Shown: one piece after another, positions 6,204 to 37,899 of the stretch | How positions within the stretch are numbered: the stretch's first letter is position 1 | Layout: every line of letters begins with the position of its first letter | Notes under the pieces: model-generated | Database searches by the model: none | Told to the model about the DNA's origin: nothing | The model's input: only the letters and a program-made list of their open reading frames with translations | From: a bacterium | GTDB lineage: Bacteria > SAR324 > JACQKK01 | Length of the DNA: 64,000 nt | Direction of reading: 5' to 3' | NCBI GenBank assembly: GCA_965205845.1 | Contig: CBDBIG010000003.1 | Span: 212,453 to 276,452 of the forward strand | Program-made: the position numbers and the translations under genes

Positions 6204-6255
6204 CGGAACCGCTGTTAAGGGCTTCCCCCCCTTTAAAAAGGAACCCAATTCAAGC

Positions 6256-12845: not shown

Positions 12846-12867
12846 CTCCCAAAAAAATCGACCCCCC

Positions 12868-20234: not shown

Positions 20235-20386
20235 TTAAACTTCCCTGCCAACCAAGCGGCCTAACAAAGGAAGTAAGCGATTGATGACAACATCAAAACG
20301 CAAAAAATATCCCGTTCAAGATTAACACCAAAGCAACCAGTCGCACGCCATGTGTCTCAAAGTCGCAAACCATGTGTCCCTTTACA
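20235..20386 (+). repeat. dam-derived repeat element, copy a (3'-terminal ~150 bp only)
   Basis: gtaagcgattgatgacaacatcaaaacgcaaaaaatatccc...ccatgtgtctcaaagtcgcaaaccatgtgtccctttaca matches the 3' flanks at 44248-44425 and 33316-33331. The copy ends 11 bp before the stop of the ExbB-like gene. Confidence 0.65.
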
Positions 20387-20396
20387 CCGCGACCCT

Positions 20397-20984: not shown

Positions 20985-21163
20985 TTTTGCTACTCTAACG
21001 TATGAACCCCTCGCCCACTGGTAAATTGTGACTTGCATCGCGAACATAACCGCCTTTTTTGCTGGGCAGCAGTGCAACCAAAAAGGATACGGTGTCGCAA
21101 TACCTCATGCTCTGGGGTAGTAATGAGAAGACAAGCCTTTCGAAGCGCAGCAACATAGGGGGT

Positions 21164-22639
21164 TTACGTGCGGTGGCCTAAAAATAAACGGCGTAGTTGA
21201 TGAAGTTCCATGCGTGTTTGGGGTTGGTTTTCAAGCATTTTTGCTTGCGTTTGGGAAGCCCCCACAACGGTCGATGCGCTGCGCCCACCCAGCAAAGCAG
21301 CAATTTCTTGGTAGGGCAAATGGCTAAATTGGCGCAAGCAATAAATGGCCATGCGCCTTGCGCGGGTAATGTTTGCACCCCGTTTACGGCTGCTTAGGTC
21401 TTGTGCTTGCACCTGAAAATGCTTGCAGATGATGCCCATAATATGCTGTGGGGCAAGGGGTGCCAAATGGGTTTGTCGTTTACGGTCGCGTAAGAAGCCT
21501 TGACACAAAGTTTTGACCTGCTGCAAAGAAAACGGCGACCACGCCGCTTCAAGCCGTTGTTGTGCACTTAGCCGTACCACTGCACCATGAATTTGGCGTA
21601 CATCCTCTGCAAGGTGTTCTTCAAGGTAGCGTAAGGCCTCGGGGTGAATTTTGACGCGCTCTTTTTCGAAAAAAGCGTGCAAAAGTTGGCTTCGCCCTTG
21701 CTGATTGGGGGGGTGAATGGGAAGCACCAACCCCATGTTAAGGCGCGAGTACAAGGCCTCACTTAGGTGTGGGAGGGCATCGGGCAAGCAAGTGCTGGTG
21801 AGTACCAATTGGCGCCGCGCCGCATGCAGGGTATCGATGCAATGCAGTAGGGTTTCTTGCGAGGTCGGGCTAATGAGCAGGTTTTCAATGCCATCGAGCA
21901 AAAGCACTTGAACTTGCTGTAAGGTGTGCTGCCATATATGGCTCCGGCGGCGGCGAATTGCCTCCAGTGTGCGGAGCTTAAAGTGCTCGGCACTCATCAG
22001 CATGAGGTGCTCGGGGTGAGCGGGCCGTAAAGTACTGCTTAAAGCATGGCGCATCGCATAGAGCAGATGGGTTTTGCCCACCCCTGGGGGACCGTAAAAC
22101 ACCAGGGGGTTCCATAACGCAGCTTGTTGTTGGCAAACATCCATGGCGATGCTTAGGGCATTTTGGCTACCTTCGTGGGCAATAAAGGAATCGAAACGCA
22201 ACTTTTCAAGCCAGGCGGGGTGCTCTTGGCCGCTGCCAGCAAAAAGGGAGGCACTGGTTCGAGGGTGCGTTTGGGGGGGAGGGCTTGCAGGCAGTTTGGG
22301 CACAGTCTCAACGGACCCAGAGTTGGCTGCATCCCTCTCACCCCAGCAAAGGGTAACGGGCGGCGCAACCTGCCATTGAGGAAATCCGACCTTCAGTGCC
22401 TCAACCAGCAAAGGGATATACAGGTTTTTAATGCGCTCGCGCAAAAATGGACTATCAATGCCAGACAAACCCACCGCACTGGGCGCAAGAGACACCAGGC
22501 GCAAAGGCGCAAGCCAGGCGTTTTTCTCCTCGGCATCGAGCTTAACAGCCAGCACACCCAATGCTTCCCGCCAGCCTGCAGCCAAAGTCGGCGCATCGCA
22601 TAACACAGCAGATGTCACCCCCCTTTTACCGTCACCCAT
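21164..22639 (-). CDS. dnaA: chromosomal replication initiator protein DnaA
   Basis: Domain I (WREALGVLAVKLDAEEKNAWLAPLRLVSL). AAA+ Walker A NPLVFYGPPGVGKTHLL and box VII/sensor regions. Domain IV HTH ANITRARRMAIYCLRQFSHLPYQEIAALLGGRSASTV. Confidence 0.85.
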   Translation of the reverse strand: MGDGKRGVTSAVLCDAPTLAAGWREALGVLAVKLDAEEKNAWLAPLRLVSLAPSAVGLSGIDSPFLRERIKNLYIPLLVEALKVGFPQWQVAPPVTLCWGERDAANSGSVETVPKLPASPPPQTHPRTSASLFAGSGQEHPAWLEKLRFDSFIAHEGSQNALSIAMDVCQQQAALWNPLVFYGPPGVGKTHLLYAMRHALSSTLRPAHPEHLMLMSAEHFKLRTLEAIRRRRSHIWQHTLQQVQVLLLDGIENLLISPTSQETLLHCIDTLHAARRQLVLTSTCLPDALPHLSEALYSRLNMGLVLPIHPPNQQGRSQLLHAFFEKERVKIHPEALRYLEEHLAEDVRQIHGAVVRLSAQQRLEAAWSPFSLQQVKTLCQGFLRDRKRQTHLAPLAPQHIMGIICKHFQVQAQDLSSRKRGANITRARRMAIYCLRQFSHLPYQEIAALLGGRSASTVVGASQTQAKMLENQPQTRMELHQLRRLFLGHRT

Positions 22640-23506
22640 CTGCTTCCATTTTGTTTTCTGGTATTTGATTGTCCTGCCATCACAAAGGTATCGTGCACCC
22701 CGCGGGGCAAAATGCTCGCCGAATTCATAGGCCCACGCAAGTGGTTGCGCGATACCTCAAAAACCGTTGCCCCCACGTTAGGGCGCAACGATTTGCCACC
22801 CTCGATGCTAGCACGGGAGCTTGCAAAAGCCTTCATGTTTTTCACTATCTTCCTTTTTTTCACCAGATGCATCCCTCTTTTTATCGTTCCATTTTGGGCC
22901 TTGCCTAGCAGAGCATGTCTTTAGAGAGGATTGTGCCCGGACACTTGCTTTGACACTGGTCAAAAAGAAATGGTTTTATGTGGTTTTTCAACAGTTTACG
23001 GGCAGTGTGTTTGCGCCAAAAGGGTGGTGTAAATTGTCCCGCCAAAAAAACGGTGTAATGCGGGTTTGCGCGTTTTTGGGACACATGGGCTTACACTCGG
23101 TACGCGCTTCATTCGAAGGGTTTTAGAAGGGGGCAAACTGCGTTCGATAAGGGTAAGTTCAAATGCCGCTTTGCAATTCGCAAAAAGGCTTACCACCAAA
23201 TGGAAAGGGTTCTTCCCTTTAGGGTGGTCATAAACCCCTTGGCGCGCAGCGCTCTGGCAGCAGATAACCCCGCATGGCGGTTAGGGGGGTGCAAAATGCA
23301 GCCCTTCGACCCACGCTCTCGCTCTGCCCCGGCTTGTTTTAAGGCGGTTTGGGTAAAGTTTGCGCTTATGCTTCGCCAGCCTGCCGCAATGCCCCCTGCC
23401 AAGGTGCTTTTGCTGTGCGCCAGCATTATAACCAGCAAGGTTTCCGCGCCGCGCCACACCAAAATGCCAAGGGTGGCACCCCCCAGTGCCCATAAAAACC
23501 CTTGGC

Positions 23507-23551
23507 GCAACTGGGGCAACTGGGGCAACTGGGGCAACTGGGGCAACTGGG
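23507..23551. repeat. simple sequence repeat (GCAACTGGG)x5
   Basis: Five perfect 9-bp repeats are followed by a degenerate sixth (gcaacgata). They sit in the region upstream of dnaA. Confidence 0.9.
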
Positions 23552-23583
23552 GCAACGATAGCATTAACTTGCATTAACGCGCA

Positions 23584-24057
23584 TTAAATGCGCCACAAAG
23601 GCATACAAACCAAGGCTTGCCTCGCATTGGGGGGCTTGGCGCTGGGGGTGTAACACGCCCAACCCTTGCTGGCTAAGCCATTTGGCAGCATCTTTGCCAT
23701 GTCTTTGCCATCTGCGCATACGCTGGCGTGCAGGCTGCGGTTTTTGCGCTTTGTGTTTACTAAAAAAATATCATCGGCGCGTTCAAGCAGGCCACGCATG
23801 GCATCGCGCGCGCTGCTGGCCTTGCTTAAGGTGGGTTCGCGTAGTTTTGGCGTTTGCAACCCCACAATTTGCACCTGAACCCCCTCGCCTAAAATGGGGT
23901 GGTGACTGGGCAGGGTAAACCTGCAGGTGTTGCCATCATAACAACCGACTATGTGCGCCTTAAACACCCTTAAAGAGCGGTTTTGGCTTAACCAAATCTC
24001 TGCAAATACAAGGCTTAATGTTATAAAAGCCAGTAAAAACAACGCTATATCTCGCAT
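23584..24057 (-). CDS. SNase-like (staphylococcal/thermonuclease-type) nuclease, secreted
   Basis: N-terminal signal/TM segment. HIVGCYDGNTCRF...VQVQIVGLQTPKLREP matches the SNase active-site region (D..GDT...R..GIDAPE). Confidence 0.6.
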   Translation of the reverse strand: MRDIALFLLAFITLSLVFAEIWLSQNRSLRVFKAHIVGCYDGNTCRFTLPSHHPILGEGVQVQIVGLQTPKLREPTLSKASSARDAMRGLLERADDIFLVNTKRKNRSLHASVCADGKDMAKMLPNGLASKGWACYTPSAKPPNARQALVCMPLWRI

Positions 24058-24199
24058 GTGCCACCCACCTTACCCACGCTAGGTTTTTTTACCCCAGTGT
24101 GACCGTAAAGTGGTGCCAACAATGTAGCGATTTTGTGAAATTTCTAAGGAATAATGCGTTTGAAGCGTAAAACCAAACCCCCAAAACCACCCCGTAAAA

Positions 24200-24228
24200 G
24201 TTCAAAGCTAGGTGCTCTAGCTTTGAAC
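24200..24228. promoter_or_regulatory. perfect 12-bp inverted repeat with 5-bp spacer (GTTCAAAGCTAG-gtgct-CTAGCTTTGAAC), followed by a direct repeat of agctttgaactc
   Basis: Seen directly in the sequence between the SNase gene start and the Mu B-like gene. It resembles an operator or terminator. Confidence 0.4.
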
Positions 24229-24477
24229 TCAGCTTTGAACTCAATTTTTCGCCCTTTTCATGGATCAAACCCTTGTTTTGAAAATACTTTTGCGTGATTG
24301 GCCTAGAGATAAAAAATAATCTACCATTGCCACTCCTTTTTTTTTAAACCGCCCTGGGTTGCACGTAAATCACGGGCACAACCTGTTCTATTTCGTCCAT
24401 GTTTTCTTACAAGGTGTAGGGTTTTCGCTCCCCGGTTTTGGGGTCGGGGTCGTCCCATTTTTGGAGCACCAGCCAGG

Positions 24478-25450
24478 TTGCCCCCCCTTCTTTGCGCTTT
24501 AATTCTTTCACCAATCCCAAACGGGCAAGGCTGTTCGGCTTTAGCACAAACACCACATCGCCAAGCCCAGCAGTGCCTGTCCCAAGCCGATGCGGCCAAG
24601 CGGATTGGGTGCGGGGCAACAGCGCTTTCGCGCTGGCTTAACGGCAAGTACACGGGCGATAACGCCGCCCTTGAAGCCAAGGTTTGCCAATGGCTAGAAG
24701 ACCAAGCCTGCCAAACCGCCTTTTTGCCCAGCAAGGGCGCAGACTGGATAGAAACCCCCACAGCCCGCCAAATCGGCATGGCCATTGCCTACGCCCACCT
24801 AAGCCGCGACATCGCGGTGGTGTGCGGTGGCGCAGGGGTTGGCAAAACCATCACCGCCCAGCACTACGCCCAAACCCGCCCTAATTGCTGGGTGTGCACA
24901 ATGGTGCCCAGTTTTGCCAGCGCCCCTGCCTGCCTTAAAGCCCTTTTGTTTGCCCTTGCCCCAAGCCAGCGCGCGGACGGACGCGGGGGAGATGTGGTTT
25001 ACCGCATGCTTCTCAGCCTATCTCTCAAAAAAAGACGCCCTGCTGATTATAGACGAGGCACAGCACCTTACCCGCCCCGCCTTGGAATGCCTACGCGCTT
25101 TGCACGATGCCACTGCTTGCGCCCTGGTGTTCATGGGCAACGAGAGCGTCTACACCCGGATGAGCGGCCCGCGCTCGGCAGAGTATGCCCAGTTGTTTAG
25201 CCGCGTTGGCAAGGTGTTAAACCCCAAAAAAGCCCGCCGTGCCGATGTAGAGGCCATTGCCCAAGCATGGGGAGTAAGCGAGCAGAAAGCCCTTGGCTTT
25301 TTAATCAAAATTGGTCACGGCCACGGCGCACTGCGTGAGGTTACCAAAACCCTACGCTTGGCCAGCCTGGCGGCAAACGGGGCACGGCAGGCCCTTAGCC
25401 TAAGCCACCTTAAAACCGCTTATTCCGAGCGGGGAGGAGTTAGCGAATGA
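24478..25450 (+). pseudogene. Mu B-like DNA transposition ATPase, frameshifted near 24990-25020
   Basis: Frame 1 holds the N-terminal HTH (GKYTGDNAALEAKVCQWLED, cf. Mu B DKYNGDNERVSQMLQRWLE) and Walker A (IAVVCGGAGVGKTITAQHY). Frame 2 holds Walker B (LLIIDEAQHL), VFMGNESVYTRMSG and EYAQLFSRV...KKARRADVEAIAQAW. All of these track Mu B. Confidence 0.75.
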
Positions 25451-26186
25451 ACCCGATCAAGCCCAAAAACAGGCGTCTGCGTGCACCTGCCTGTTCGCAT
25501 TTATACGCGGCACACAAGCAGCCCCATGTTTTGCTTAAATAAATAAAGGAGACCCGTCATGAAAATTGACATCAACAGTTTAAGCGCAGCACGACAAAAA
25601 TGGCATCTCAAAGGGGAGACGCGCCTATAAGGCATGGGTAAAAAACCTCTTTTTTTTGCGTGGCCAAGGCAGGAGGGGGTTTGTTCGCCCCAGCAACCGA
25701 CCCCGCGCAGGGCTACAACGCTGGCAAGGAGGGCTATAGATGAAAACGCCAAAGGTTTATGTTGGCGCACGCTTAGAAAAAGGGATGCCCCCCCTTTAAA
25801 CCACACCCTGACACCCTTAATAAGGAGTCCCCACATGCAAGCCCAAACCATCCCCCAGGTTGGAATATGCATCACGCTATAAAAAAAGCGACCCTTGCGC
25901 ATGAGGTGGCGCTATGAGTTTTTTGCAAACGCTTTGCGACGCCGTAGTGAGCGGATTTGGGTTTTTTATGGGTGGGTTCGCTGCCTACGGCATGTTGGAA
26001 ATGTGCGAGGAGGGCCCATGAAAACCAAATCCTTTTGCCCCAACGAGCAAGCCTACCGCAATAAAAAATACGCGGCCCTGCACGCCCAATCGAGCAAAAT
26101 GGGCTTTCGGCGATGCCCAATACCGCGGGCTGGGTAAGCAACTACGGCGTGCGCAGCGCAAAAAACCTGAGCACCTTAAAACGGGC

Positions 26187-27143
26187 TTGCCCGTGCGCGG
26201 AGGCTTGGCTCGCGTGGCCGTTTGGAGTTACCTCTTTAAGGCCTACGCGCTCAAAGACTGGGCAGCCTTTTTAGAGGTGTTTGGGATGCCCTTGCGCATT
26301 GGGCGTTATGGGCCAGGGGCTAGCGATGAAGACAAGCGCATCCTGCGTCAAGCGGTGATCAACCTTGGGAGCGATGCGGCTGCCGTGTTGCACGAGAGCA
26401 TGCAAATAGAGTTTCAAGATGCCGTGCAGGGCCGGGGCGGGGAGGGCCTGTTTTTGGCAGCGGCCGAGTTTTGGGATAAGCAAACCAGCAAGGCGGTGCT
26501 TGGGCAAACCGCCAGCACCGAGGGCACCCCTGGCAAACTGGGCAACGATGCCGCCCAAATGGAGGTGCGCCAAGACATACTGCGCGCAGACGCCGCCGTT
26601 TTGGCAGCCACCTTAAACCGCGACCTGGTCAAGCCTTTCATTGACCTTAATTTTGGCCAGCCCCCCGATAACCGCTATCCGCGAATTGTGTTGCCTTTGC
26701 CTGAGCCCGACAAAATGGAGGCAATCGTTGATGCCATTGCCCGCCTTGTGCCCCTTGGCTTGCGCGTTGACCAGCACACCCTGTGCGAGTTGCTCGGTTT
26801 GCCCGAACCGGGCTCCGATGCCCAGTTGCTTGGTACGCCAGCCAGCGCAACCCAAGCCAGCAACCAAGCCCTAGGGCACATATTAACAGCCCTTGCCCAA
26901 GCAACACCAGCCCAAGCGCAAAGCGAATTAGATGCCTTGACAGAGGAAACAACCCAAAACTGGCAGCCCTTGCTGGCGCCCTTGCTTGATCCCTTGGTGC
27001 AAGCCCTTGGCCAAGCGAAGAGCCCAACAGACCTCGCGCGCTTGCTCGCCCAAGCCTTGCCCGAGAGCGATCCGGCCCCCCTTGCCAAGGCGATTGCCCG
27101 CGCCACCTTTAAAGCGCGTGGCATGGGTGATGGGGAAGGCTAA
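26187..27143 (+). pseudogene. Mu gp29-like portal protein (DUF935), N-terminally truncated
   Basis: Only about 318 aa, corresponding to the C-terminal half of a ~500-aa portal (WSYLFKAYALKDWAAFLEVFGMPLRIGRY..). The ORF opens with TTG directly after a stop. Confidence 0.65.
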
Positions 27144-27148
27144 AAACC

Positions 27149-29242
27149 ATGCCCACACCCAAGCCAGGCTTTCATTTTACACCCACCCCGCCCAAAGAAG
27201 CCCTTGCCTACCTCAAGGCCAAAAAACTAAAACCCGCCTTTGACTATCGCGATGTTTGGCGTGAGGAGCACGCCTTGGGCTTTAGCGTGGCCAAGGCAAT
27301 GCAGTTGGATGTGTTGCGTGCCATCCGCGATGGTCTTGCTGAGGCGCTGGCCAAGGGCAAAACCTTTGAGGGTTTTAAAAAAGACCTCATCCCCACCCTC
27401 CAACAAAAAGGATGGTGGGGCATAAAAGGCAAAAAAGACCCCAAAACGGGCAAGATAGAGCAAGTGCGCCTTGGGAGCCCGCGCCGTTTACGCACCATTT
27501 TTTGGGCCAACACGCGCACCGCCTATGCTGCGGGGCAGTGGGAACGCATTGAGCGCGAAGCAGCTACCCACCCCTACCTGCGCTATGAACTGGGCCCCAG
27601 CAAGGAGCACCGTTTGGAGCATCAGCACTGGAACGGGCTTATTTTGTCCAGCAGCGATGCTTGGTGGAACGCCCACATGCCACCCAACGGCTGGGGCTGT
27701 AAGTGCCGCGTCAGGCTTTTAAGCAAGGCCGAGGCAGGGCGCTTGGGTGGCCCAGGCAAACCGCCCACCAACAAAACCCGCCCTTGGCTTAACAAGCGCA
27801 CAGGCCAAATTGAACGCGTGCCCCAAGGCATAGACCCAGGCTGGGATACCAACCCAGGCAAGGTACGCAGCCAAGCCTTGGCCAACATGCTGGCGGCAAA
27901 AAGCGCAGATGCGCCCGTTGCAACCCTCGGCCCGATCCCCCTGCTCGAAGAGCGGGCGGTCATGAAAAAAAAGTTAAGCAAGGCCAAGGGCAGCAACCAA
28001 GGGGGCGTCTATCAAGGGGCAGACGGCATCAAGCGCTACGTCAAGTTTTACACCGACCCTGGCCAAGTCTACGGCGAGGCGGCGGTCAATGCAATCTATG
28101 CCCAGTTGGCGGTCAATGCGTCCAAAAGCGCCTTGGTTGCCCGCAAACAAGGGGGGCTTGCCCTGGCCACCGAGTGGATTGAAGGGGCAGCCCCAATCGC
28201 CTTGGACGAACTAACCCAAGCCAAGGCAAAAAAACTGCTTGACGGGGTGGCGGCAGATGCTTGGCTGGCCAACTGGGATGCCTTGGGGCAAACCTTTGAT
28301 AACGTGGTTTGGCAAAAAGGCGCCCCCGTGCGGATTGACAACAGCGGGGCGCTCTTGTTTCGAGCCAAAGCGGGGCGCAAAAATACCAAGGCACTGGCCA
28401 CAATAGGCGAAGCCGAGGGCTTTTTTCACCCTGCCACCAACCCCACTTACGCCAAGGCAATGGAAAAAGCGGGGGTGCGCATTTACGAGGCGCTGGGGGA
28501 TCACTGGCTTAAGACCGAGCGAGCGATTAGCAACCTAAGCAAAAAAACCAACGCCTTTGCCGACCTCTTGCCCCCCGTGCCAGGGGTGCCCGAGCCCGAG
28601 CGCCTTGCCATGCTACAAACCTTGCAAAAGCGTGCTATGCTCCTCAAGGGGGTGTCGCGCAAGGTGCGTGCCTTTGCCAAATTGCCCGTCCACGAGCAGG
28701 GTTTGATGAACCTCAAAGGCTATCAATACCAAATCTTGCTTGGGCAGGCGAACACAAGGGCGAAGGAATCGGGTGTCGTGCACCGTTTCTCCGAGCCCGA
28801 GTTGGCTGCCTTGCACGGCTACACGGTCATCGATTATAAACCGATTAACCAGGCCAAGCGCGGGAAACTGCCCAAAGCCCTGGGAGAGGAATACGCCCAC
28901 TACACCAAAACCATCATCGCGGGGCTGGCAAAACTCCCCAACTACCGGGGGAAGGTCACCCGAGGGACGACCCTGCCCGAAAGTGAACTGGCCAAAATTA
29001 AGCCAGGCAAGGTTTGGACACCCAAAGGCTTTACCAGCACATCCACGGGTAAAGCCTTTGGTGGGCCGCATCGGCTGAAAATACAGAGCCGCACGGGCAA
29101 GGAGGTATCTTGGATATCCCGGCACGCGCACGAAAAAGAGGTCCTCTTTAAACCAGGAACCAGGTTTCTCGTTAAGGAACGAGTACGAAACGGCAAAACA
29201 ACTTTGATAAAACTTGAAGAGGTTAAAGACGATGATAAGTGA
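27149..29242 (+). CDS. MuF-family head-morphogenesis protein fused to a C-terminal ADP-ribosyltransferase (R-S-E class) toxin domain; intact 697-aa ORF
   Basis: The N-terminal Phage_Mu_F region is FWANTRTAYAAGQWERIE...HQHWNGL...PPNGWGCKCRV. The C-terminal ~170 aa carry the catalytic triad of C2/C3/iota-type ARTs: YRGKVTRG (Arg), GFTSTSTGK (STS) and HAHEKEVLFKPGTRFLV (ExE followed by LF..G..F.V). Confidence 0.8.
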   Translation: MPTPKPGFHFTPTPPKEALAYLKAKKLKPAFDYRDVWREEHALGFSVAKAMQLDVLRAIRDGLAEALAKGKTFEGFKKDLIPTLQQKGWWGIKGKKDPKTGKIEQVRLGSPRRLRTIFWANTRTAYAAGQWERIEREAATHPYLRYELGPSKEHRLEHQHWNGLILSSSDAWWNAHMPPNGWGCKCRVRLLSKAEAGRLGGPGKPPTNKTRPWLNKRTGQIERVPQGIDPGWDTNPGKVRSQALANMLAAKSADAPVATLGPIPLLEERAVMKKKLSKAKGSNQGGVYQGADGIKRYVKFYTDPGQVYGEAAVNAIYAQLAVNASKSALVARKQGGLALATEWIEGAAPIALDELTQAKAKKLLDGVAADAWLANWDALGQTFDNVVWQKGAPVRIDNSGALLFRAKAGRKNTKALATIGEAEGFFHPATNPTYAKAMEKAGVRIYEALGDHWLKTERAISNLSKKTNAFADLLPPVPGVPEPERLAMLQTLQKRAMLLKGVSRKVRAFAKLPVHEQGLMNLKGYQYQILLGQANTRAKESGVVHRFSEPELAALHGYTVIDYKPINQAKRGKLPKALGEEYAHYTKTIIAGLAKLPNYRGKVTRGTTLPESELAKIKPGKVWTPKGFTSTSTGKAFGGPHRLKIQSRTGKEVSWISRHAHEKEVLFKPGTRFLVKERVRNGKTTLIKLEEVKDDDK

Positions 29243-29414
29243 GGAAATGAAGCAATTTATTGAAGAGTCACGGGAATATGACCGCCTGCTTAAAGAAGGC
29301 AAACTCAAGCCTGTGTCAAGGCACCTGCAGGCCAAAATGGACAGTGGTGGGCCCTTTGCGGACGAAATTCACGATGCTCCCCCCGCCAAACCCAAACCGG
29401 GCAAAAAAGGCTAA
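29232..29414 (+). CDS. small ORF, translationally coupled to the MuF-ART gene; candidate immunity/antitoxin protein
   Basis: Its ATG overlaps the toxin stop (gATGAtaagTGA). It encodes 60 aa, acidic at the N-terminus and basic at the C-terminus (MISEEMKQFIEESREYDRLLKEGK...). No homology is recognised. Confidence 0.35.
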   Translation: MISEEMKQFIEESREYDRLLKEGKLKPVSRHLQAKMDSGGPFADEIHDAPPAKPKPGKKG

Positions 29415-29516
29415 GGCAAGTGTGGTTATTCACCCCAAAGGCCTTTCTTTCTATTGTGGCGCACACAGACGACCCCGCCAACTTGCGCCTGGTGCGTGCC
29501 CGCCGCCCTGGTGAGA

Positions 29517-29690
29517 TTGAGGCGCTTTTTCCTGTTGCGCTCGTGCACACCACTCCCGACGCCGATTTATCCCTATTGAGGCGCTTTTTCCTGTTGCGCT
29601 CGTGCACACCCCCAATGCCGATTTATCCCTATTGAGGCGCTTTTTCCTGTTGCGCTCGTGCACACCACTCCCGACGCCGATTACCCCTTT
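29517..29690. repeat. tandem repeat: ~57-60 bp unit x3
   Basis: The unit ttgaggcgctttttcctgttgcgctcgtgcacacc[actcccgac/cccaat]gccgatttatccctat recurs at 29517, 29576 and 29632. Confidence 0.85.
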
Positions 29691-29908
29691 CGCGCATGCC
29701 TGCCAGCCCAGCAAAGCGCCTGCCTTGCACAGCGTCTGGGCTGTAATGGCCAACCAATACGAGCAAGGGCGCTAAAACGCTTTTAAGCCCTTTATCCCCC
29801 TCCTCTAGCCCAACTCCCCAGCCAAACATTTTGCAACGCTTTTCAACGCGTTTAAACGGGGTTTAAACGGGGGTATTTACCCCTGGCAAAAGTTTGCAAA
29901 GGGGGTAG

Positions 29909-30497
29909 TTGCCCCTGGCAAAAGGGTGCACTAGCGTAGCCTTTTTTTGTGTGTTTTGCATGGCTAAACTAAAAGGCATGGAAACACAAATCCCCCAACA
30001 AGCCGAAATCCCAGCCCTTTGCATGGCGTTGGATGGTGCCCTAGCCGCCATCGGGCAGGGCGAAGTGCCCGAGTGGATACCGCTTTTGCCCAAGGGGCCG
30101 CGCATTCAAGGGCGCACAGGGCGTGAGTGGCAGTTGGCAGATGTACAAAAGGTGATAGCCGCCAGTTTTCGCAATTTGCCCAAAATCCCAGTTGACTGGA
30201 ACCATGCCACCGAGAAGTATGGCGCAACCAGCCCGCAAACCCAGAAAGCTGCGGGGTGGATTGTGGCGATGGAAGCGCGCCCTGATGGGGTATGGGGCAA
30301 AGTGGAATGGACAAACGGGGGGGCGCATGACAGAAGAGATTGGCGACAGGCGCAAAGAGCGCGTCCAATGGCTCGGGCAGGTGGCAAGGGGCCTGATCAG
30401 CCTAGGGGCAGCGATTGAAGAGCCCCGTTCAGGAGGCGCGCCTGCGGTGCAAAGCACGCCCCGCCAGTTGACAAGAGACGCTTTGCGAGGGCTTTAA
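29909..30497 (+). pseudogene. Mu gpI-like protease/scaffold protein, frameshifted at a G7 homopolymer (30315-30321) and C-terminally truncated
   Basis: The frame-1 ORF (29909-30418) and the frame-3 ORF (30192-30497) overlap. The N-terminal region (WQLADVQKVIAASFRNL..PVDWNHAT..AAGWIVAMEARPDGVWGKVEWT) is Mu-I-like. The frame switches at acaaacGGGGGGGcgc. Confidence 0.5.
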
Positions 30498-30501
30498 AAA
30501 A

Positions 30502-31143
30502 ATGGCAGGCGTGCAAATTGAGGCCGACCTAAGCGGGCTAAAAACACTAAACCAGCGCATTGCACGCTTGGGCAAGGTGGATAAGCGTAAACTGCTAAAC
30601 GCCTTGGGCGCAGAGATGGAAAGCCAAACCAGGCGCAGGTTGGCGGAGGAGAAAGAGAGCCCCGAGGGAGAACCGTGGAAGGCGTGGTCGCCAAAACATG
30701 CCCAAACACGCCACGGCGGGCAGGGCTTGTTGCTGGGCGAAGGGGCGTTATTGGATAGCATCACCTTTGCCGTGCCCAACGATGGGGCGGTGTTGGTGGG
30801 TAGCAACCTTGTCTACGCTGCCATTTTGCAGTTTGGCGGGGCGGAGGTGGGCAAACCAGGCCTGCCAGCGCGCCCCTACCTTGGGCTTAGCGCCGCCAAT
30901 CGCCGTGGCTGGTGGGGTGGATGTAGCGGCAGTGGCATTTGGCAACACACCCGCGCCAAAAACACCCAGGCCAATGCCCTTGCCCTCGCCGATGAAGCCC
31001 GCCAAGCCCTAGCATGGCTCACCAAAGACGGCCTCGCCACCAGTTTGGAAGTGGAAGCGGTGAGGCAAGCAGGGCAGATTGCCTTGCAGGTGCGTGTAAA
31101 GGGCGTTGCAAGCGCGTTTAAAGGAGGTGTGTATGCCGTTTAA
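30502..31143 (+). CDS. Mu gpG-like phage virion morphogenesis protein (N-terminal ~150 aa), with an unrelated C-terminal extension
   Basis: IEADLSGLKTLNQRIARLGKVDKRKLLNALGAEMESQTRRRLAEEKESPEGEPWKAWSP...VYAAILQFGG is the virion-morphogenesis (PF05069-type) pattern. Confidence 0.6.
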   Translation: MAGVQIEADLSGLKTLNQRIARLGKVDKRKLLNALGAEMESQTRRRLAEEKESPEGEPWKAWSPKHAQTRHGGQGLLLGEGALLDSITFAVPNDGAVLVGSNLVYAAILQFGGAEVGKPGLPARPYLGLSAANRRGWWGGCSGSGIWQHTRAKNTQANALALADEARQALAWLTKDGLATSLEVEAVRQAGQIALQVRVKGVASAFKGGVYAV

Positions 31144-31834
31144 AATCCCCAGCCTTGGCGATTTACGCGCCCGCAGCCGTGGTGATATGGAAGCCGCGTT
31201 GCCAGGGGTTTCTGCCCAACAGACGAGCATGGCGCAAACCTTGGCAGACAGCCACGCTGCCGCCATGCGCGGGCTTTACCTCCACCAACAAACCCTAGCC
31301 CAAGACCTCTTCCCCGACACCGCCCAAGCAGACGCCCTTGAACGCTGGGCAGGCATTTGGGGTGTCACCCGCACCCCAGCAGCCAGGGCAGTCGGTCAAG
31401 TGGTGTTTCAAGGTCAAGCAGGCGCTTGGGTGCCCCTTGGCTTAGGCTTGCAAAGCCAGCGCAACCAAACCTACACCACCAGCCAAAGCGGGGTGCTGGC
31501 CACCAACGGGCAAGCGACCCTCGCCGTGCGTGCTGATAAAGGCGGGGCGGCAGGCAACCTAGCAACAGGTAGCACGCTCACCCTAAGCAGCACCGTGCTC
31601 GGGGTTGAACCCGAGGCAAGGGTCGCAACAGGCGGGCTTGTCGGTGGCGCACCCCAAGAGACGGATGATGCCCTGCGCGCACGCCTGCTGGCACGCATTC
31701 GCGCCCAAGAACGCCTTGGCAGCGTAGCCGACTACAAAGCCTGGGCTTTGGCCGTCCCTGGCGTTGATCGCGCCTGGGCTTTTGCCCATTACGCGGGCGA
31801 ACCCCCATTGGGGCCGGGCAAGGGGAAGGCTTAA
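31135..31834 (+). pseudogene. baseplate J-like protein (Mu gp47 / P2 gpJ family), C-terminally truncated
   Basis: ...DLFPDTAQADALERWAGIWGVTRTPAARAVGQVVFQG... and ..ADYKAWALAVPGVDRAWAF are baseplate_J motifs. Only about 230 aa are present, against ~350-380 expected. Confidence 0.5.
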
Positions 31835-32062
31835 CGCTGCGGGCGTTGGGCATACAAGGCGGGGATGAGGAAATGCAGGAGCATAGGCACTCATATCAGA
31901 TTGGGGATCGTCCAGTAAACGGGGGAACCCGATCTTACGTGGGGTGGGAAGATGTACCTTATGGGCCACTTTACACTGACAACTACGGACTAGGCCAAAG
32001 CGGGAACATGCAGCCCTACCTGCCGCTTCACTACATCATCAAAACTTAGTAAAGGTTTTTTT

Positions 32063-32470
32063 ATGGAACTCATCATTACCCAAAGCACGATTACCCTGGG
32101 CGAATACACGGCCAGTTTAGCCGACTTTGCCCAAGACTACGGCCAGCGAGCCCCAGCCCCTGCGCATCCCGACAGTGCCCGTTCCTATCATCGAGGCGTG
32201 CGCCACGCATCCCACACCAAGCACGGGCAAACCGCTGGCGGGCCACTGGTTTGGGCCCAAGGCGATGCCATTATCGCAGCCCTGCCGACACTGCTTGCCA
32301 AGCAAAAAGCAAGGGAAGACGCGGCACAGGCAGCAAGACAGGCCGAACAAGGGACAAGCCAAGCCGAGCAAGGGGCAAGCCAAGCCGAGCAAGGGACAAG
32401 CCAAGCCGAGCAACAAAGCCGCCAAGAACAGGGGCAAGAACAGGGGCAAGAACAAGGCGGGGATGCTTAA
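32063..32470 (+). CDS. hypothetical low-complexity protein with internal 21-bp (EQGTSQA) and 12-bp (QEQG) repeats
   Basis: An ORF inside the prophage remnant. It carries the repeat ...AEQGTSQAEQGASQAEQGTSQAEQ..QEQGQEQGQEQG. Confidence 0.3.
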   Translation: MELIITQSTITLGEYTASLADFAQDYGQRAPAPAHPDSARSYHRGVRHASHTKHGQTAGGPLVWAQGDAIIAALPTLLAKQKAREDAAQAARQAEQGTSQAEQGASQAEQGTSQAEQQSRQEQGQEQGQEQGGDA

Positions 32471-32482
32471 AGGAAGTAAATC

Positions 32483-33250
32483 ATGAAAAGTTTTTTTAGT
32501 CGGAAAGGTGGCAAGCGTCTGCTTGCAAAAAGGCTGGCGGGTATCATTGATGCCGTGCCACACACATGCTATTGCGAGCCCTTTATGGGCGCAGCCCACG
32601 TCTTTTTTGCGCGCAATCGCGAGCGCACTATTTCTGAAGTGCTAAACGATATCGACGGCGAATTGGTGAACCTATTTCGCGTGCTTAAATACCACAAGGA
32701 GGCGTTTTTGCAGGGCTTGGAATGGGGGGTCTACGCGCGGGAGGTATTTGAAAACCTCCAAAAACAAGACCCCCAAACTTTGACCGACATCCAGCGTGCC
32801 CAACGCTTTTATTGCCTGCACAAAATGTCTTTTGACAGCGAAACTAGACAGTTTGGCTACTCAAAAAAACAGCCAACAATCACCCTGCAACCCTTAAAAA
32901 TCCTTTAAGCAAGCCCACGCGGCCCTGCAAAGGGTGCATCTTGAGTGCAAACCTTGGCCAAGATGTGCTCACCCGCTACGATTCAAAAAACACCCCCTTC
33001 TACCTCGACCCACCCCACCACGGGCACGAAAACGACGATGGCAAGGTTTTTTGTTGAGCGAGACTTTGAAAGTCTCGCAACGGTTAAAGGGCAAGGCAAG
33101 TTTCTCCTGAGCATCAACGACACACCCAAAATGCGCGCGTATTTTGCGCGGTTCGACCGCTACCAGATTAAAACGCACTACACCCTAGGCTTGCATGCTG
33201 TTGTCGGGAAAAAACAGGTACGCGAATTGCTATACACAAACTTAGCACCT
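32483..33250 (+). pseudogene. Dam-like N6-adenine DNA methyltransferase (D12 class), disrupted by at least two frameshifts or stops
   Basis: The N-terminal part (32483-32908) has GGKRLLAKRL..YCEPFMGAAHVFF and NDIDGELVNLFRV. The DPP(Y/H) region is TPFYLDPPHH (~32990-33020). The C-terminal part lies in another frame (33040-33250: ERDFESLATVKGQGKFLLSINDTP). Confidence 0.75.
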
Positions 33251-33571
33251 GAGGCCATGAAAACCGTAAAAGTGGCCTCGCCATACTCACAACATCGCAA
33301 GGATAAGGAAAAAAACATGTGTCCCTTTACACCCGCAAGCCCCTTTCATCGCCGTGGGTCATTGAATATTTTACGCAAAAAACATGCCGAAACAAAGAGA
33401 CCCCAGAATGACCAGTGTAAAAGCATGTGGCCCAAAGTGTAAAAGCAAGTGAACGTTTACAAGGATACTATTTTGTATGGTCAAGACCCAGGGTTTGCTC
33501 AGACCATAGGAGGTGAGCATTCACAACGGGGGCAACACCTTGCAGGTTCGAGTTTGGTAGGGTAGGGATGT

Positions 33572-34570
33572 TTAAAAACGCTGATGAGGGCCCGTGTGTA
33601 AAAGGCGTAGCCAAGGGCGATGCTGAAAACGTTTGGGTAGGATAGGGGGCGATGCTGCGCCTTGCAAAAGGGGAGTGTGGCCTTGATTGCGTACCAAAAA
33701 AAGCGGGTTTGGTGGTGCGTACGTCGGTTCCCCTGGCCATAAGCAGCTGGCGGGTGCATAGCGGAGGCACAATAAAACGGCAGGGCTCTGCGCAAGGGGG
33801 TTGAACCGATACATGACGTGAGGGCTGTACAGGTTTAGACAGCCCTTTTCCAACCAACTCGTTTTAAGGTCTGCATGGGGTGCCTCCCGCGGCATATCTT
33901 GGACGGCATTTTGGAGAACCTCGAAAGCCGAGGCATGTAAGGGCCCATGACGGTGCGAACTTGCGACATATTGAAAAAGTGCGTGGGTGCTACCTTGCAA
34001 AGCCATCATTACACAACAGCCCTGGGATGGTTGTAAGGGCCAGCGGGGAATGCCTTGATCGGTCGCTGTGCTATCTTGCTGCCATGTATGCAGCAGGGAT
34101 TGTTTTGCGGGGTTGATTAACAGCGTGCTCCCCCAAAACAAAATGTCCTCCCCCAACACGCTTTCCACCATATCGATCACGCTGGGCAGGGTAGCGTAAT
34201 GCAACCAGGCCTGGGCAATGCGCTGGGGGTTAAGACCGTGCACAGCAGGTTGTTGATGCAAGGTATGAGGGTTTGGAATGCACAAAAAATCGTCAAAAGC
34301 ATCTTGTTTAAGATCTGCTGGCATTGGGGGAGTGCTTGATGGATTGACAAGGGCCACGCTGGCTTTTAGCAAACTGTGCAAGTTGTCAATACTCGCACGA
34401 GCAAGGCGGTAATCAGGACACAACAGTCCCCTTTTTTGGTATAAGGTGTATTCCAAGGGTAGCAAAGGGCGCATTTGGCGCACTTTTTCAACGCTCCGGT
34501 GGGCAAACAGGGGTTGGTATGATGACACCTGTTTCATAGATATGCTAATCGTGGTTTGGTTTTTGCGCAT
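33572..34570 (-). CDS. phytanoyl-CoA dioxygenase (PhyH)-family 2OG-Fe(II) oxygenase-like protein; C-terminal ~80 codons may be a run-on
   Basis: ..GEDILFWGSTLLINPAKQSLLHTWQQD.. carries the HxD iron-binding motif, and a later ..GSTHALF.. His is present. Confidence 0.45.
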   Translation of the reverse strand: MRKNQTTISISMKQVSSYQPLFAHRSVEKVRQMRPLLPLEYTLYQKRGLLCPDYRLARASIDNLHSLLKASVALVNPSSTPPMPADLKQDAFDDFLCIPNPHTLHQQPAVHGLNPQRIAQAWLHYATLPSVIDMVESVLGEDILFWGSTLLINPAKQSLLHTWQQDSTATDQGIPRWPLQPSQGCCVMMALQGSTHALFQYVASSHRHGPLHASAFEVLQNAVQDMPREAPHADLKTSWLEKGCLNLYSPHVMYRFNPLAQSPAVLLCLRYAPASCLWPGEPTYAPPNPLFLVRNQGHTPLLQGAASPPILPKRFQHRPWLRLLHTGPHQRF

Positions 34571-34831
34571 GTGCAGCGCCCTCGTGCAACCTTTGCCGCC
34601 ATCAAGGCCAAAAGCATAAACACCTCAAAGCTTGTATAATCGAAGGAGTTTGCTCGCCTTGCGCTCTAGGCTTATGGCTGCGCAAAGCACTGCCTGCAAT
34701 GCCTGCCAGGTTACACACAAAAGACAACAATTATATGGCCCTTTTGTTGGGCTTGTGCAACAGTGCATGCACAAAAAGCAACCACGGGGCTTTGAAATGA
34801 ATGCTGCGCGTAGGCGTAGCTATAAGCCCCA

Positions 34832-36325
34832 CTAACCCCGTGCTTTTTGTAGGACCTCAGCCATGCTGTTTACATCACCCACATCGCCTGGAAATATCAC
34901 GTAGGCCATGCCAGGAAATCGGCTTTCGGAACCCAAACGCCATACAGGTACCCCAGGGATGGCAGGGCCTAGCACCATGGCACGCTTGACACCAAGACCT
35001 TTGGTGGCAACATTGCTTGAGGTAATTCCCCCCTTGGCAATTAAAAAGCGTGGTGGGGCGGAGAGTGTGTGCACAACATAACATAAAGCACTTGAAATGC
35101 TGGCTGCGATACCCAGCAATTCTTCCTTATTCGAAGAAGGACCGAGGCCGCTGCTCACGTAGAGCACAGCATCATCCCCTTTTTTCATGCAAGTTTCCAC
35201 CTGTGCCACCAGTTGATCCATGGTGGCTTTGCGCGTAGTGCTGTCGAGCAGCAACGACGCATTGGCCTCAATCCCTTGAACCCCTTCGACCTGTAGCAGT
35301 ACTTCGAGTTGTTTGGCGGAGAATTGGGTGTGAGATCCAAACACCACCAAGCCCCCCGACATGGCATTCTGAAGAGGGGCATATTCACTTTCAAATAGGG
35401 GATCTCTCGCCTCTAACCCTGCACGCACCCTCACAAAGGAAGCAGAGCTCCGGTAGACAAACTTTCTTCCTTGCATTATGGCATCCAACAAACCGCACAC
35501 AAACACCTCTTGATCGCGATAAGAAAGCGAGTCTACCACGGCTGTACTGCCAGGCTTTAAGGCTAACAAGGTCTCACACACCCGCAAGGCACCCCCTTGG
35601 CGCAACAGGTTAATGTCGATACTAACCACGTCTTTCGCCTTGGTTGCCCCTTTGGTTTTCTCTTCAACCCATTTCCGCAAGTCGCTGTTTTTGTACCCAA
35701 AATATGTGTCTTTGCCATATTCGGTTTGTGCGGCAGGAATAAAATCGCTTCCTTGGGTGACATAGTGAATGCCTCTTAGGGTATAACGCCTACCTTCCTT
35801 GAAAAACGGGATGAACAGGCGCGGAGCGTTTTGCAGATCCAAGGCGTTTGTTATTGCGTCGATTTCTTCAGCAAAATGACCGCGTAAAGTTGAATCGCTG
35901 CAGCTAACCACGTCGAGATCATAGCCCGTTTCTTGGGTGGCGGCATGTAACGATTCGCAAATTTTGTGCATCAGGGCACGGGCATCGCGGGTGGGCAGGC
36001 TGCGCGAATTGGTCAGCACGTAAAACACGGAAGAATGGCGCATCTCTTCGGCAAATTCGTGGGTATCCCAGGTGGTGAGTACGGGCACATTGTGTACGGT
36101 TTGGGTCCCCGTTGGGTCATCATCGAGCACCACCAGACGTGTATTGGGTAGTCCCTCCATGCGAGCCTGAATTTTATCGAGCATATAGCCAGGCCACTCG
36201 CTAGGGACACCTTGAAGTGCTTCGGTTTCTAAAAGGGTCTTTTCGGGATTCACTGTAAGTATGGGTATCCTCTTTTGGGGCAGGTGTGTATAGGTCGGAA
36301 TTGATGTTTTGCTTTTTTTAAGCAC
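34832..36325 (-). CDS. four-carbon acid sugar kinase family protein (OtnK/DUF1537-DUF4392)
   Basis: N-terminal RLVVLDDDPTGTQTVHNVPVL...YVLTNSRSL, with the C-terminal nucleotide-binding half following. Confidence 0.7.
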   Translation of the reverse strand: MLKKSKTSIPTYTHLPQKRIPILTVNPEKTLLETEALQGVPSEWPGYMLDKIQARMEGLPNTRLVVLDDDPTGTQTVHNVPVLTTWDTHEFAEEMRHSSVFYVLTNSRSLPTRDARALMHKICESLHAATQETGYDLDVVSCSDSTLRGHFAEEIDAITNALDLQNAPRLFIPFFKEGRRYTLRGIHYVTQGSDFIPAAQTEYGKDTYFGYKNSDLRKWVEEKTKGATKAKDVVSIDINLLRQGGALRVCETLLALKPGSTAVVDSLSYRDQEVFVCGLLDAIMQGRKFVYRSSASFVRVRAGLEARDPLFESEYAPLQNAMSGGLVVFGSHTQFSAKQLEVLLQVEGVQGIEANASLLLDSTTRKATMDQLVAQVETCMKKGDDAVLYVSSGLGPSSNKEELLGIAASISSALCYVVHTLSAPPRFLIAKGGITSSNVATKGLGVKRAMVLGPAIPGVPVWRLGSESRFPGMAYVIFPGDVGDVNSMAEVLQKARG

Positions 36326-36620
36326 GCCTATAGTCTACAAAGCATATTGTATCTCAATATTCCTAAGCAATCATGGGATGCATGGCTGGCGCACGCACCA
36401 TCCACAGGCTATCATGGATTTATGTATCTTGGCTACTATGCAAGTTACTATGTAAAAATGGGGTCTGCAATCCAGCGTTGCAGCGATGCGTGTTGCCAAA
36501 GCTCAGCGCACTTCCACGCGCCAATGGGCAAGAACAACCCTTCACAAGCAACACGCCACGCGCCAATGGGCAATACGCTACACGGCGAACGTTAACCATA
36601 CTACACAAAAAGATATGTCC

Positions 36621-37881: not shown

Positions 37882-37899
37882 GAGGCTTGAGCCACCACA

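Follow-up and report, generated by a model that had tools for sequence, protein, structure and literature searches.

The window analysed here, a stretch of DNA 64,000 nt in length, carries an intact 697-aa open reading frame (hereafter the toxin) in which a phage head-morphogenesis (MuF) module is followed by a kinase-like domain and an ADP-ribosyltransferase (ART) domain. The toxin gene overlaps a 60-aa downstream gene (hereafter the partner), and both lie within a defective Mu-like transposable prophage (mini-Mu), which comprises the following features:

22927–22931 (no strand): left copy of the 5-bp target-site duplication AGGAT, identical to 33462–33466
22932–33461 (no strand): defective Mu-like transposable prophage, 10,530 bp, with 5'-TG...CA-3' termini (terminal repeats, sequence reading)
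24478–25450 (+): gene for the MuB transposition ATPase, frameshifted into overlapping ORFs 24478–25200 and 24827–25450 (Pfam)
26214–27143 (+): portal (gp29-like) C-terminal fragment, Portal_Mu profile positions 137–335 of 336 (E 5.6e-61)
27149–29242 (+): intact MuF / kinase-like / ART protein, 697 aa (ORF, Pfam, family alignment, AF2, PHROG)
29232–29414 (+): 60-aa partner gene, candidate inhibitor or immunity gene (ORF, conserved in relatives)
29492–29662 (no strand): three direct repeats of ~57 bp, directly 3' of the partner gene
29909–30418 (+): gpI (protease/scaffold) N-terminal fragment, Mu-like_Pro profile positions 2–87 of 330
30502–31143 (+): chimera formed by deletion between a virion-morphogenesis (Phage_tail_S) gene and a GP46 gene, with an identical junction at four loci
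31133–31834 (+): baseplate J N-terminal fragment, Baseplate_J profile positions 2–159 of 255
32483–32908 (+): Dam-type methyltransferase N-terminal fragment, MethyltransfD12 profile positions 3–118 of 253
33462–33466 (no strand): right copy of the 5-bp target-site duplication AGGAT, identical to 22927–22931

The element is bounded by terminal inverted repeats (22931–22962 and 33409–33462), and a search allowing 0–1 mismatch located the end-repeat motif CACTTGCTTTNACACT in a single copy at the left end and in two copies at the right, with no further occurrence in the window; it revealed no second mini-Mu there. A preliminary description of this DNA had reported that the neighbouring prophage genes are damaged, and this holds for MuB, portal, gpI, the tail_S::GP46 chimera, baseplate J and Dam. 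The two MuB ORFs retain recognizable domains (HTH and AAA_22 in the first, AAA_22 and Phage-MuB_C, 4.3e-23, in the second; Pfam), and genes for transposase A, terminase and capsid are all absent from the mini-Mu, no A gene lying between the left end and B. With MuA missing and MuB frameshifted, the element is therefore non-autonomous, and would have to be mobilized in trans. Since the mini-Mu revealed no Mor/C activator gene and no sigma-70-like promoter was detected in 25400–30000, expression from the copy in the window is uncertain. Rfam and tRNA scans returned a tRNA-Gly only. The element shares with mini-Mu and defective transposable prophages the TG...CA ends, the transposase-binding repeats, the 5-bp duplication, the internal deletions and the existence of copies with a common scar, but differs from known mini-Mu in being natural, multi-copy and non-autonomous, and in having the toxin–partner pair as its largest intact cargo.

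The organization of the toxin gene is as follows:

27149–27898 (+): MuF module, gpF/gp30-type minor head protein ('DNA pilot'), residues 1–250 (Pfam PF04233, phrog_220)
27932–28738 (+): atypical protein-kinase-like domain, residues 262–530
28766–29239 (+): R-S-ExE ADP-ribosyltransferase domain, residues 540–697
28961–28963, 29036–29038, 29132–29134 and 29138–29140 (+): ART catalytic codons R605, S630, E662 and E664
28994–29068 (+): hypervariable segment 1, residues 616–640, around the STS motif (23% mean pairwise difference, 13 full-length paralogs)
29153–29239 (+): hypervariable segment 2, residues 669–697, last β-hairpin (46% mean pairwise difference, 13 full-length paralogs)

The uninterrupted reading frame and N-terminal Phage_Mu_F domain of the preliminary description were both recovered. 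A run of 697 open codons has a chance probability of ~9e-12 given the local base composition, and PF04233 matches residues 59–188 (E 1.9e-13, 51.6 bits against a cut-off of 29.6; Pfam); this match, like those to ADPrib_exo_Tox and ART discussed below, exceeds its curated gathering cut-off. The ORF also matches phrog_220, 'minor head protein and DNA pilot' (E 8.8e-83; PHROGs). Homologues of the protein occupy the gene slot between portal and gpI in intact Mu-like prophages, and the portal–MuF–gpI synteny is unbroken at two loci (L002 and L006).

At the opposite end of the protein, ADPrib_exo_Tox matches residues 543–680 (E 1.4e-6) and ART PF01129 is also detected (E 4.9e-5; Pfam). Residues 260–697 are modelled by AF2 with a pLDDT of ~80–90, and an ART fold was found for the C-terminal domain, on which the catalytic Arg, Ser-x-Ser and Glu-x-Glu appear in the correct order, as in R-S-E enzymes of the Tre1 / Alt-VIP2 / C3 clade. 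The R-S-E signatures originally proposed are present as regards FTSTS (S630/S632) and HEKEV (E662/E664), but the catalytic arginine is R605 in VTRG, not R600 of YRGK. Among 15 family members R605 and S630 never vary and at least 90% keep S632, E662 and E664; in sequence alignment the five residues line up with the catalytic motifs of Tre1, with which the domain shares detectable homology (E 5.8e-22). Pfam, the ART fold and the Tre1 alignment thus support a MuF::ART fusion with intact catalytic signatures, and the domain, judged from its sequence, is a Tre1-like enzyme predicted to act as an arginine-specific mono-ADP-ribosyltransferase.

The region between these modules had been described as matching nothing recognizable and as a possible second functional module. 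Pfam indeed yields no match there, and a profile search of PDB chains with this domain returned noise only, so that fold comparison was needed for its recognition. Compared with the atypical kinases CtkA, CotH, PI4K type II, actin-fragmin kinase and HipA, the model of residues 262–530 displays a bilobal kinase fold, which favors the second-module proposal. Conserved residues (G281/S282/G285/G286, K299, E310, D370, N375, D377, D384/N385 and D397) include a GSNxGG motif (281–286), K299, E310, D370xxxxN375 and D397 that are invariant except for S282 (≥90%) and follow the canonical kinase order, their presumed equivalence with CtkA residues being based on this order in the sequence. Identity with CtkA (JHP0940), the cell-translocating Ser/Thr kinase of Helicobacter pylori (PDB 3AKJ), is only 13%, and CtkA stands alone, whereas the domain described here sits between MuF and ART. 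On the strength of the model, the middle domain is a CtkA-like atypical kinase fold with putative activity. The domain occurs very widely (5,254 clusters at 50% identity), yet it is missing from Pfam and PHROGs. The kinase–ART cassette recurs in MuF, portal and polyvalent proteins and in viral contigs; in Yersinia phage fHe-Yen8-01 it is part of a protein of at least 2,146 aa annotated as 'phage particle associated'.

The partner gene starts with an ATG at 29232, in the +1 frame relative to the toxin, and the toxin TGA lies at 29240–29242, so that the two genes overlap by 11 nt and not through the ATGA initially reported. A Shine-Dalgarno-like GAAGAGG motif is located ~9 nt 5' of the partner ATG. 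The existence of a coupled downstream gene is nonetheless genuine: the partner is conserved 3' of toxin homologues of 42–50% identity in related prophages, six variants of it in the same apparent genome all keep the ORF and the conserved core, and in one lineage (P0011/P0136/P0137) it is fused in frame to the toxin. Variation among partners concentrates in the N-terminal ~25 aa (72% different), followed by a more conserved core, RLxxEGKLKPxxxHLQAKMDSG (22%). The partner has no Pfam match above noise, no PDB sequence match and no ADP-ribosylhydrolase (ARH) domain, and more distant toxin homologues are followed by other proteins (an Ank-repeat protein, a 147-aa protein) that share a weak N-terminal motif. 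In the AF2 model of the natural toxin–partner fusion the first partner helix reaches a pLDDT of ~90, an output from which contacts are unreadable. A putative role for the partner as an immunity protein is plausible. Its in-frame fusion in one lineage, however, is unusual for a classical immunity protein and would be just as compatible with a C-terminal module of accessory or autoinhibitory function. The fused form in P0011 also led to consideration of a programmed +1 frameshift joining toxin and partner, which is unlikely given that AAG-UGA-G offers no slippery re-pairing.

The toxin belongs to a set of 16 paralogs in what appears to be a single genome, of which 13 are full length and three (P0002, P0133 and P0134) are truncated or fused. 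The paralogs are ~99% identical except in the two ART surface segments, with a 1.1% difference outside them. Within segment 2, alternating positions (T671, F673, V675, G682, I687, L689 and E691) are kept, and among the 13 full-length paralogs the ExE segment that separates the hypervariable segments shows 0% difference and MuF residues 1–166 contain no variable positions; the conservation of MuF among paralogs argues against a change of function. Five toxin tail variants and six partner variants were identified, and the contig counts of the two match, which suggests, as judged from these counts, that tails and partners vary together; such co-variation would fit a cognate toxin–partner interface. 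A diversity-generating retroelement was considered as the source of the variable C-terminus and rejected, with no second copy of 29150–29300 in the window, no reverse transcriptase in the element, and K/E/Q/W at variable sites instead of AAY-reachable residues.

A tightly coupled, overlapping gene pair that survives several deletions in its element, with inferred cognate co-variation and a partner that is small, charged and probably partly disordered, might be taken for an addiction module, in which the ART and a labile partner would kill cells losing the mini-Mu and so secure its retention with no benefit to the host. This toxin–antitoxin-like reading appears very unlikely. The toxin retains a domain of 250 aa for incorporation into the head, which a toxin of this type would not need, no promoter was detected upstream of it, and the presence of 16 copies in five to six variants would weaken addiction through cross-protection unless pairs are strictly cognate. 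PADLOC matched neither toxin nor partner, and neither PADLOC nor Pfam links the pair to known toxin–antitoxin families.

The preliminary description had also taken an intact toxin in a wrecked prophage as a sign of selection and possible domestication. That argument is unsupported or confounded, since the mini-Mu has been amplified and a divergence of ~1% makes intactness unsurprising. Recent amplification of the defective element explains much of the intactness of the toxin: the element carries intact ends and a target duplication, 16 near-identical paralogs exist and the same scar is present at four loci, which indicates that the wreck was copied as a wreck. Against this background, it is improbable, and not clearly the case, that the toxin is host-domesticated, that is, that the host keeps the toxin–immunity pair for bacterial competition or for use against a eukaryotic host. 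The toxin is certainly unbroken where every neighbour is broken, and full-length forms make up 13 of the 16 toxin paralogs but only about 3 of 10 portals (cluster mates measure 309 or 316 aa at ~7 loci versus 514 aa at three loci) and 4 of 13 baseplate J genes. Moreover, hypervariability is confined to the surface while buried residues are kept, suggesting selection on a working protein, and the nearest solved relative, Tre1, is an antibacterial toxin. The copies are, however, non-independent, with the scar at four loci and the intact ends and duplication showing that the wreck transposed as a unit, and at ~1% divergence an unbroken frame is no surprise. Neither Pfam nor PHROG reveals an export signal or secretion-system domain in the protein, the phage head being the sole route found, and the invariance of MuF residues 1–166 is what would be expected if the head still delivers it. 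Some full-length portal, baseplate J (352–354 aa) and MuB copies also exist elsewhere in the genome, so that phage particles may still form.

Recent amplification, apparent in the 99–100% identity of the chimera ORFs across loci and the 1.1% difference among toxins outside their variable segments, could alternatively mean that this copy of the toxin has no current function and is simply not-yet-broken cargo of an amplified defective element, with the small ORF being a C-terminal domain split off from gpF that serves as an accessory or assembly module instead of an inhibitor. The three toxin copies already truncated or fused, the in-frame fusion of the P0011 lineage, as for a domain of one protein, and the failure to find a promoter are in line with this idea. 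Neutral decay, on the other hand, would hardly preserve the frame, the buried residues and an ExE segment with 0% difference beside hypervariable segments, and all six partner variants keep both ORF and conserved core. In addition, elements with a common scar apparently bear different toxin tails, which points to exchange after the element became defective. Absence of current function in this copy is considered improbable.

The reading that best accounts for these observations as a whole, and that is regarded as reasonably likely, is that of a MuF head protein with a kinase–ART effector cassette, injected into host cells, accompanied by a cognate partner and carried on a mini-Mu. The ORF would encode the minor head protein (gpF/MuF) of a transposable phage related to Mu, extended by a two-enzyme cassette consisting of a CtkA-like atypical kinase and then a Tre1-like arginine-specific mono-ADP-ribosyltransferase. 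The MuF module would carry a few copies of the protein into the capsid at the portal, from which they would pass, together with the ejected DNA, into the next cell to be infected, in the manner of T4 Alt, and kinase and ART would then modify host proteins there. The partner may be a dedicated binder of the variable ART surface, most likely acting as a cognate ('immunity-like') inhibitor that silences the enzyme in producer cells or lysogens, in a way resembling in principle the plugging of the Tre1 active site by the Tri1 N-terminal helix. The pair would be the cargo of a non-autonomous mini-Mu, copied after the loss of most phage genes. The variable pairs could also reflect kin discrimination, in which resident Mu elements, even defective ones, would express partners neutralizing only a matching virion-delivered ART, with selection maintaining and diversifying pairs in a mini-Mu swarm and the kinase acting with the ART on host targets; this extension is thought unlikely.

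Polymorphic MuF toxins of temperate phages have been described (Zhang et al., 2012, PMC3482391; Jamet et al., 2017, PMC5576092), ARTs make up 14% of 191 surveyed MuF toxins (PMC5576092), MuF-fused Alt/VIP2-type ARTs are documented (Iyer et al., 2022, PMC9503650), and packaging of MuF-fused ARTs in the head has been proposed (PMC5576092, PMC9503650), as has their injection. Like these proteins, the toxin combines an N-terminal MuF with a C-terminal toxin domain, recognized within a ~450-aa extension (minimum of 100 aa in Jamet et al., 2017); its gene adjoins portal in a prophage remnant, here with gpI and baseplate J remnants downstream, and a small ORF (60 aa, for a criterion of <150 aa) lies directly 3'. 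In contrast, a ~270-aa kinase-like domain separates MuF and ART, an arrangement unmentioned in the MuF-toxin and MuF-ART literature examined; most known MuF toxins come from Firmicutes, whereas the present host is Gram-negative and has Mu-like elements; and the 16 paralogs vary in sub-domain surface segments, not by whole-domain swaps. MuF–ART fusions are hence already known, and the new elements are the kinase–ART cassette, the partner family and the mini-Mu context.

As in the Tre1–Tri1 pair of the Serratia proteamaculans T6SS (PDB 6DRE/6DRH), the downstream gene is a candidate neutralizer. Tri1, which works partly via a short N-terminal helix in the Tre1 active site (PMC11606950), combines an ARH domain with this occluding extension, while the 60-aa partner lacks ARH, and only the principle of a short occluding helix could apply. 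Delivery would likewise differ, through a phage head and not PAAR/T6SS, whose domains are absent from the toxin, its N-terminus being MuF (Pfam, PHROG). The target of Tre1 is FtsZ. A functional analogy may be drawn with phage T4 Alt, a head-packaged, injected ADP-ribosyltransferase, in that an effector enzyme would ride the virion and enter with the DNA; T4 Alt, however, lacks a fusion to MuF, and no kinase domain is known in it. The combination of several effector domains in one polypeptide recalls the polyvalent virion proteins of phages and conjugative elements (Iyer et al., 2017, PMC5512222), in which ARTs and protein kinases are both recurring modules. Their ARTs are of the H-Y-D type, as opposed to R-S-E here, and their 'C-lobe-less' kinase family may possibly be the same domain as the kinase-like domain of the toxin.

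MuF-fused toxins are common in prophages, with host takeover, the lysogeny decision and bacterial weaponry as candidate roles, and this locus provides a compact case in which a Tre1-like ART of predictable chemistry is tightly coupled to a widespread kinase-like domain. The five to six natural variant pairs found in one genome lend themselves to the comparison of cognate and non-cognate binding and rescue. The locus is also a warning that a gene left intact in a dead prophage need not have been domesticated, and the multiplication of a defective Mu-like element together with its toxin pair is relevant to the persistence and spread of toxin genes in bacterial genomes.

The gene at the centre of this analysis encodes a protein of three modules and is followed by a small overlapping partner gene.

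27149-29242, + strand: toxin open reading frame, 697 aa, no interruption
Toxin residues 1-250: gpF/MuF minor head protein module (phrog_220 'minor head protein and DNA pilot', E 8.8e-83)
Toxin residues 59-188: Phage_Mu_F (Pfam, E 1.9e-13, above the curated cut-off)
27932-28738, + strand: predicted kinase-like domain
Toxin residues 543-680: ADPrib_exo_Tox (Pfam, E 1.4e-6, above the curated cut-off)
Toxin open reading frame: ART PF01129 (Pfam, E 4.9e-5, above the curated cut-off)
29232-29414, + strand: partner open reading frame, 60 aa

The uninterrupted frame and its Phage_Mu_F N terminus, both put forward in the preliminary description, hold (697 open codons have a chance probability of ~9e-12 at the local base composition), and the proposed ADP-ribosyltransferase (ART) C terminus is matched by two family models. 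All three R-S-E motifs are present, with the catalytic arginine at R605 (VTRG) and not at R600 as first thought, followed by S630-T-S632 and E662-K-E664; across 15 aligned family members R605 and S630 never vary, while S632, E662 and E664 are kept in at least 90%. Judged by its sequence, the gene is a genuine, intact MuF-ART 'polymorphic toxin' of a known kind. Homologues 35-50% identical over their full length lie exactly between portal and gpI in intact Mu-like prophages (loci L002 and L006). In L002 the gpF-gpI slot (12072-16684) looks like a cargo hot spot, being filled by three genes that encode an Ank-repeat protein with a partner-like N-terminal motif, a TIR-domain protein and an N6_Mtase/Eco57I restriction-modification protein.

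The central region had been suspected of being a second functional module, and a canonical series of residues invariant in the toxin family fits this: a GSNxGG Gly-rich loop (281-286; S282 in at least 90%), K299 (RYVKFY), E310, D370xxxxN375-W-D377, D384-N385 and D397 (RIDxGG). The region is predicted to be an atypical protein-kinase-like domain, probably active, for which, as for its homologues P0144-P0290, Pfam, PHROGs and PADLOC have no model. At E <= 0.001 its profile retrieves 5,254 clusters (represented at 50% identity), of which 1,641 reach E <= 1e-30. Among the best 150 of the 5,254, a narrow HMM recognises an ART after the kinase-like domain in 74, and most others have 200-280 more residues past it, with R...S...E-like motifs in several that were inspected (e.g., P0166, P0167, P0174); inteins and NUDIX neighbours are also present among these 150, and the domain often stands in tandem or in giant polyvalent proteins as long as 7,004 aa. 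The kinase-ART cassette is also found in IMG/VR viral contigs, in predicted structures of phage proteins annotated as MuF-ART fusions and, by tblastn, in six cultured phages. One of the six is Yersinia phage fHe-Yen8-01, in which the gene 129 product (at least 2,146 aa, annotated 'ADP-ribosyltransferase toxin; phage particle associated protein') has both the kinase-like domain (E 2e-47) and a C-terminal ART. Such occurrences support the view, expressed in PMC5576092, PMC5512222 and PMC9503650, that phages carry MuF-linked ARTs in the virion and inject them, as with T4 Alt. As far as searched, those papers describe no kinase between MuF and ART, and we did not find in the literature searched a description of this widespread kinase-ART cassette with its embedded kinase-like domain resembling CtkA of Helicobacter pylori.

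The partner is read in the +1 frame and starts at ATG 29232, giving an 11-nt overlap with the toxin gene (TGA 29240-29242) in place of the ATGA overlap originally reported. Comparison with relatives shows that it is a real gene. The 91-aa frame after P0003, a 50%-identical toxin homologue, has the core DRL.AEGKLKP...HLQAKMDSG in common with it (73% identity over 26 aa), and on a viral contig the frame following a homologue of 42% identity shares ANLSAEERRLL...LQAQIDS with it. A profile search yields eight family members, of which the window's own genome accounts for six. In the P0011/P0136/P0137 lineage the partner module is joined in frame to the toxin C terminus, with the former 'MA' start still in place; the AF2 model of this natural fusion, in a part where the alignment lacks depth, has a low-confidence linker and then a helix of pLDDT ~90, which suggests, short of proof, that the partner helix docks on the ART. 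More distant toxin homologues are followed by different proteins (an Ank-repeat protein, a 147-aa protein) with a weak N-terminal motif alone in common.

The surrounding prophage is wrecked, as originally described.

22927-22931 and 33462-33466: AGGAT, perfect 5-bp direct repeat flanking the element
22931-22962 and 33409-33462: inverted terminal repeats
24478-25200 (HTH+AAA) and 24827-25450 (AAA+MuB_C): MuB, split between two frames
Portal frame: profile positions 137-335 only
gpI: profile positions 2-87 of 330 left
30502-31143: Phage_tail_S/GP46 gene chimera
Baseplate J and Dam: N-terminal fragments

The element lacks genes for transposase A, terminase, capsid and tail. Its Mu-type termini are intact, with TG at 22932 and CA at 33461. 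With 0-1 mismatch allowed, the only occurrences of the motif CACTTGCTTTNACACT in the window are one at the left end and two at the right. These ends and the AGGAT duplication are the signature of Mu-type transposition, and the remnant is thus, from its sequence, a 10,530-bp non-autonomous mini-Mu. It lies 293 bp upstream of the start codon of dnaA (21164-22639, minus strand), in an intergenic region that might be expected to contain elements of a replication origin or promoter. The left arm contains about six copies of a 9-bp tandem repeat (GGGGCAACT, 23498-23568), the stretch after the partner (29420-29662) has three direct repeats of ~57 bp (29492-29662) that truncate a gene fragment encoding VWLFTPKAFLSIVAHTDDPANLRLVRARRPGEIEALFP, and a 21-bp tandem repeat (32333-32413) codes for (QAEQG[TA]S)n in the frame 32063-32470. 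Two more dam-like copies outside the element (14256-14665, minus strand; 43887-44245, plus strand) are 78-82% identical in DNA to 32527-32934 and have no Mu end repeats nearby. The flanking host proteins (12829-22639, 33572-41124) are unusually divergent, with DnaA scoring 245 bits against a TIGR00362 cut-off of 344 and a PBP that stands at the same distance from Neisseria PenA as from SpoVD; the presence of a tol-pal YbgF homologue points to a Gram-negative host.

The 16 members of the toxin cluster lie on four contigs (877,621 bp, which holds the window, 771,172, 707,169 and 540,308 bp), and the housekeeping proteins of the window's contig are singletons at 90% identity; most simply, the four contigs are one genome. 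Thirteen copies are full length, two are N-terminally truncated and one, P0134 on the 771,172-bp contig, is a MuA::toxin deletion fusion, in which ~150 residues resembling the Mu transposase C-terminal core are joined to the toxin from residue ~140 onward, which shows that another copy decayed independently. Other prophage genes are likewise multi-copy, with fragments mixed with full-length forms: portal (309/316 aa at ~7 loci versus 514 aa at three), baseplate J (129/211/233-aa fragments versus 352-354 aa at four loci), Dam and MuB. At four loci, spread over three contigs, the 213-aa tail_S::GP46 chimera has the same junction and is 99-100% identical, and at least seven loci have the 152-aa gene intact. 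This implies that a deleted derivative was copied after the deletion arose. Given the intact ends and target duplication of this copy, the simplest reading is that more complete copies mobilised it in trans. The preliminary description had taken an intact toxin within a wreck as a sign of selection, for example on a domesticated toxin. Host domestication is a rival reading, but intactness is weak evidence for it: the deleted derivative was itself copied, an unbroken 2.1-kb gene is not remarkable at ~1% divergence, and the 13 intact copies do not count as independent observations. We did not find toxin carriage on a proliferating mini-Mu described in the literature searched.

Variation among the toxin copies is sharply localized.

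Mean pairwise amino-acid difference among the 13 full-length toxin copies
Residues 1-615 (MuF, kinase-like domain, first part of ART): 1.1%
Residues 616-640 (around the STS motif): 23%
Residues 641-668 (ExE motif included): 0%
Residues 669-697 (last beta-hairpin): 46%

The last hairpin keeps alternating positions (T671, F673, V675, G682, I687, L689, E691), as would be expected if a folded protein were diversifying at its surface. Between the six partner variants the difference is 72% over the first ~25 residues and 22% over the rest, and the contig counts of these variants agree with those of the five toxin tail variants (tail 'a' and partner P0142 each on two contigs, tail 'b' and P0299 each on four). 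Pairing of toxin tails with partners is thus likely one-to-one, as judged from contig counts. A DGR is an unlikely source of the variation, with no template repeat in the window, no RT in the element and K, E, Q and W at variable sites. In another genome (4.33-Mb contig ctg6236c), two Mu-like prophages (L007 and L008, each 4001-6553) stop right after a MuF-kinase-ART gene with a fused partner, and paralogs of this toxin also vary in the last ART hairpin. We did not find such a small partner, conserved, sometimes fused and hypervariable, described in the literature searched. The toxin could instead be a functionless recent copy and the small frame merely an accessory domain, but, against pure neutrality, the elements that share the chimera's deletion scar lie on contigs without tail 'a'; either tails were exchanged after the element turned defective or gene conversion spread the scar. 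In both cases there is recombination between copies, and it is reshuffling the variable interface.

Since no sigma-70-like promoter was found upstream of the toxin and no late-activator (Mor/C) gene in the element, this copy may rely for its expression on read-through or on factors that other copies supply. The pair could also be read as a TA-like addiction module. In the mechanism we propose, the MuF module would place the protein in the capsid and, once ejected, the kinase-like and ART domains would modify host proteins; the partner would bind the variable ART surface, probably silencing the ART in the producer or lysogen, and the toxin-partner pair would here be the cargo of an amplified mini-Mu.
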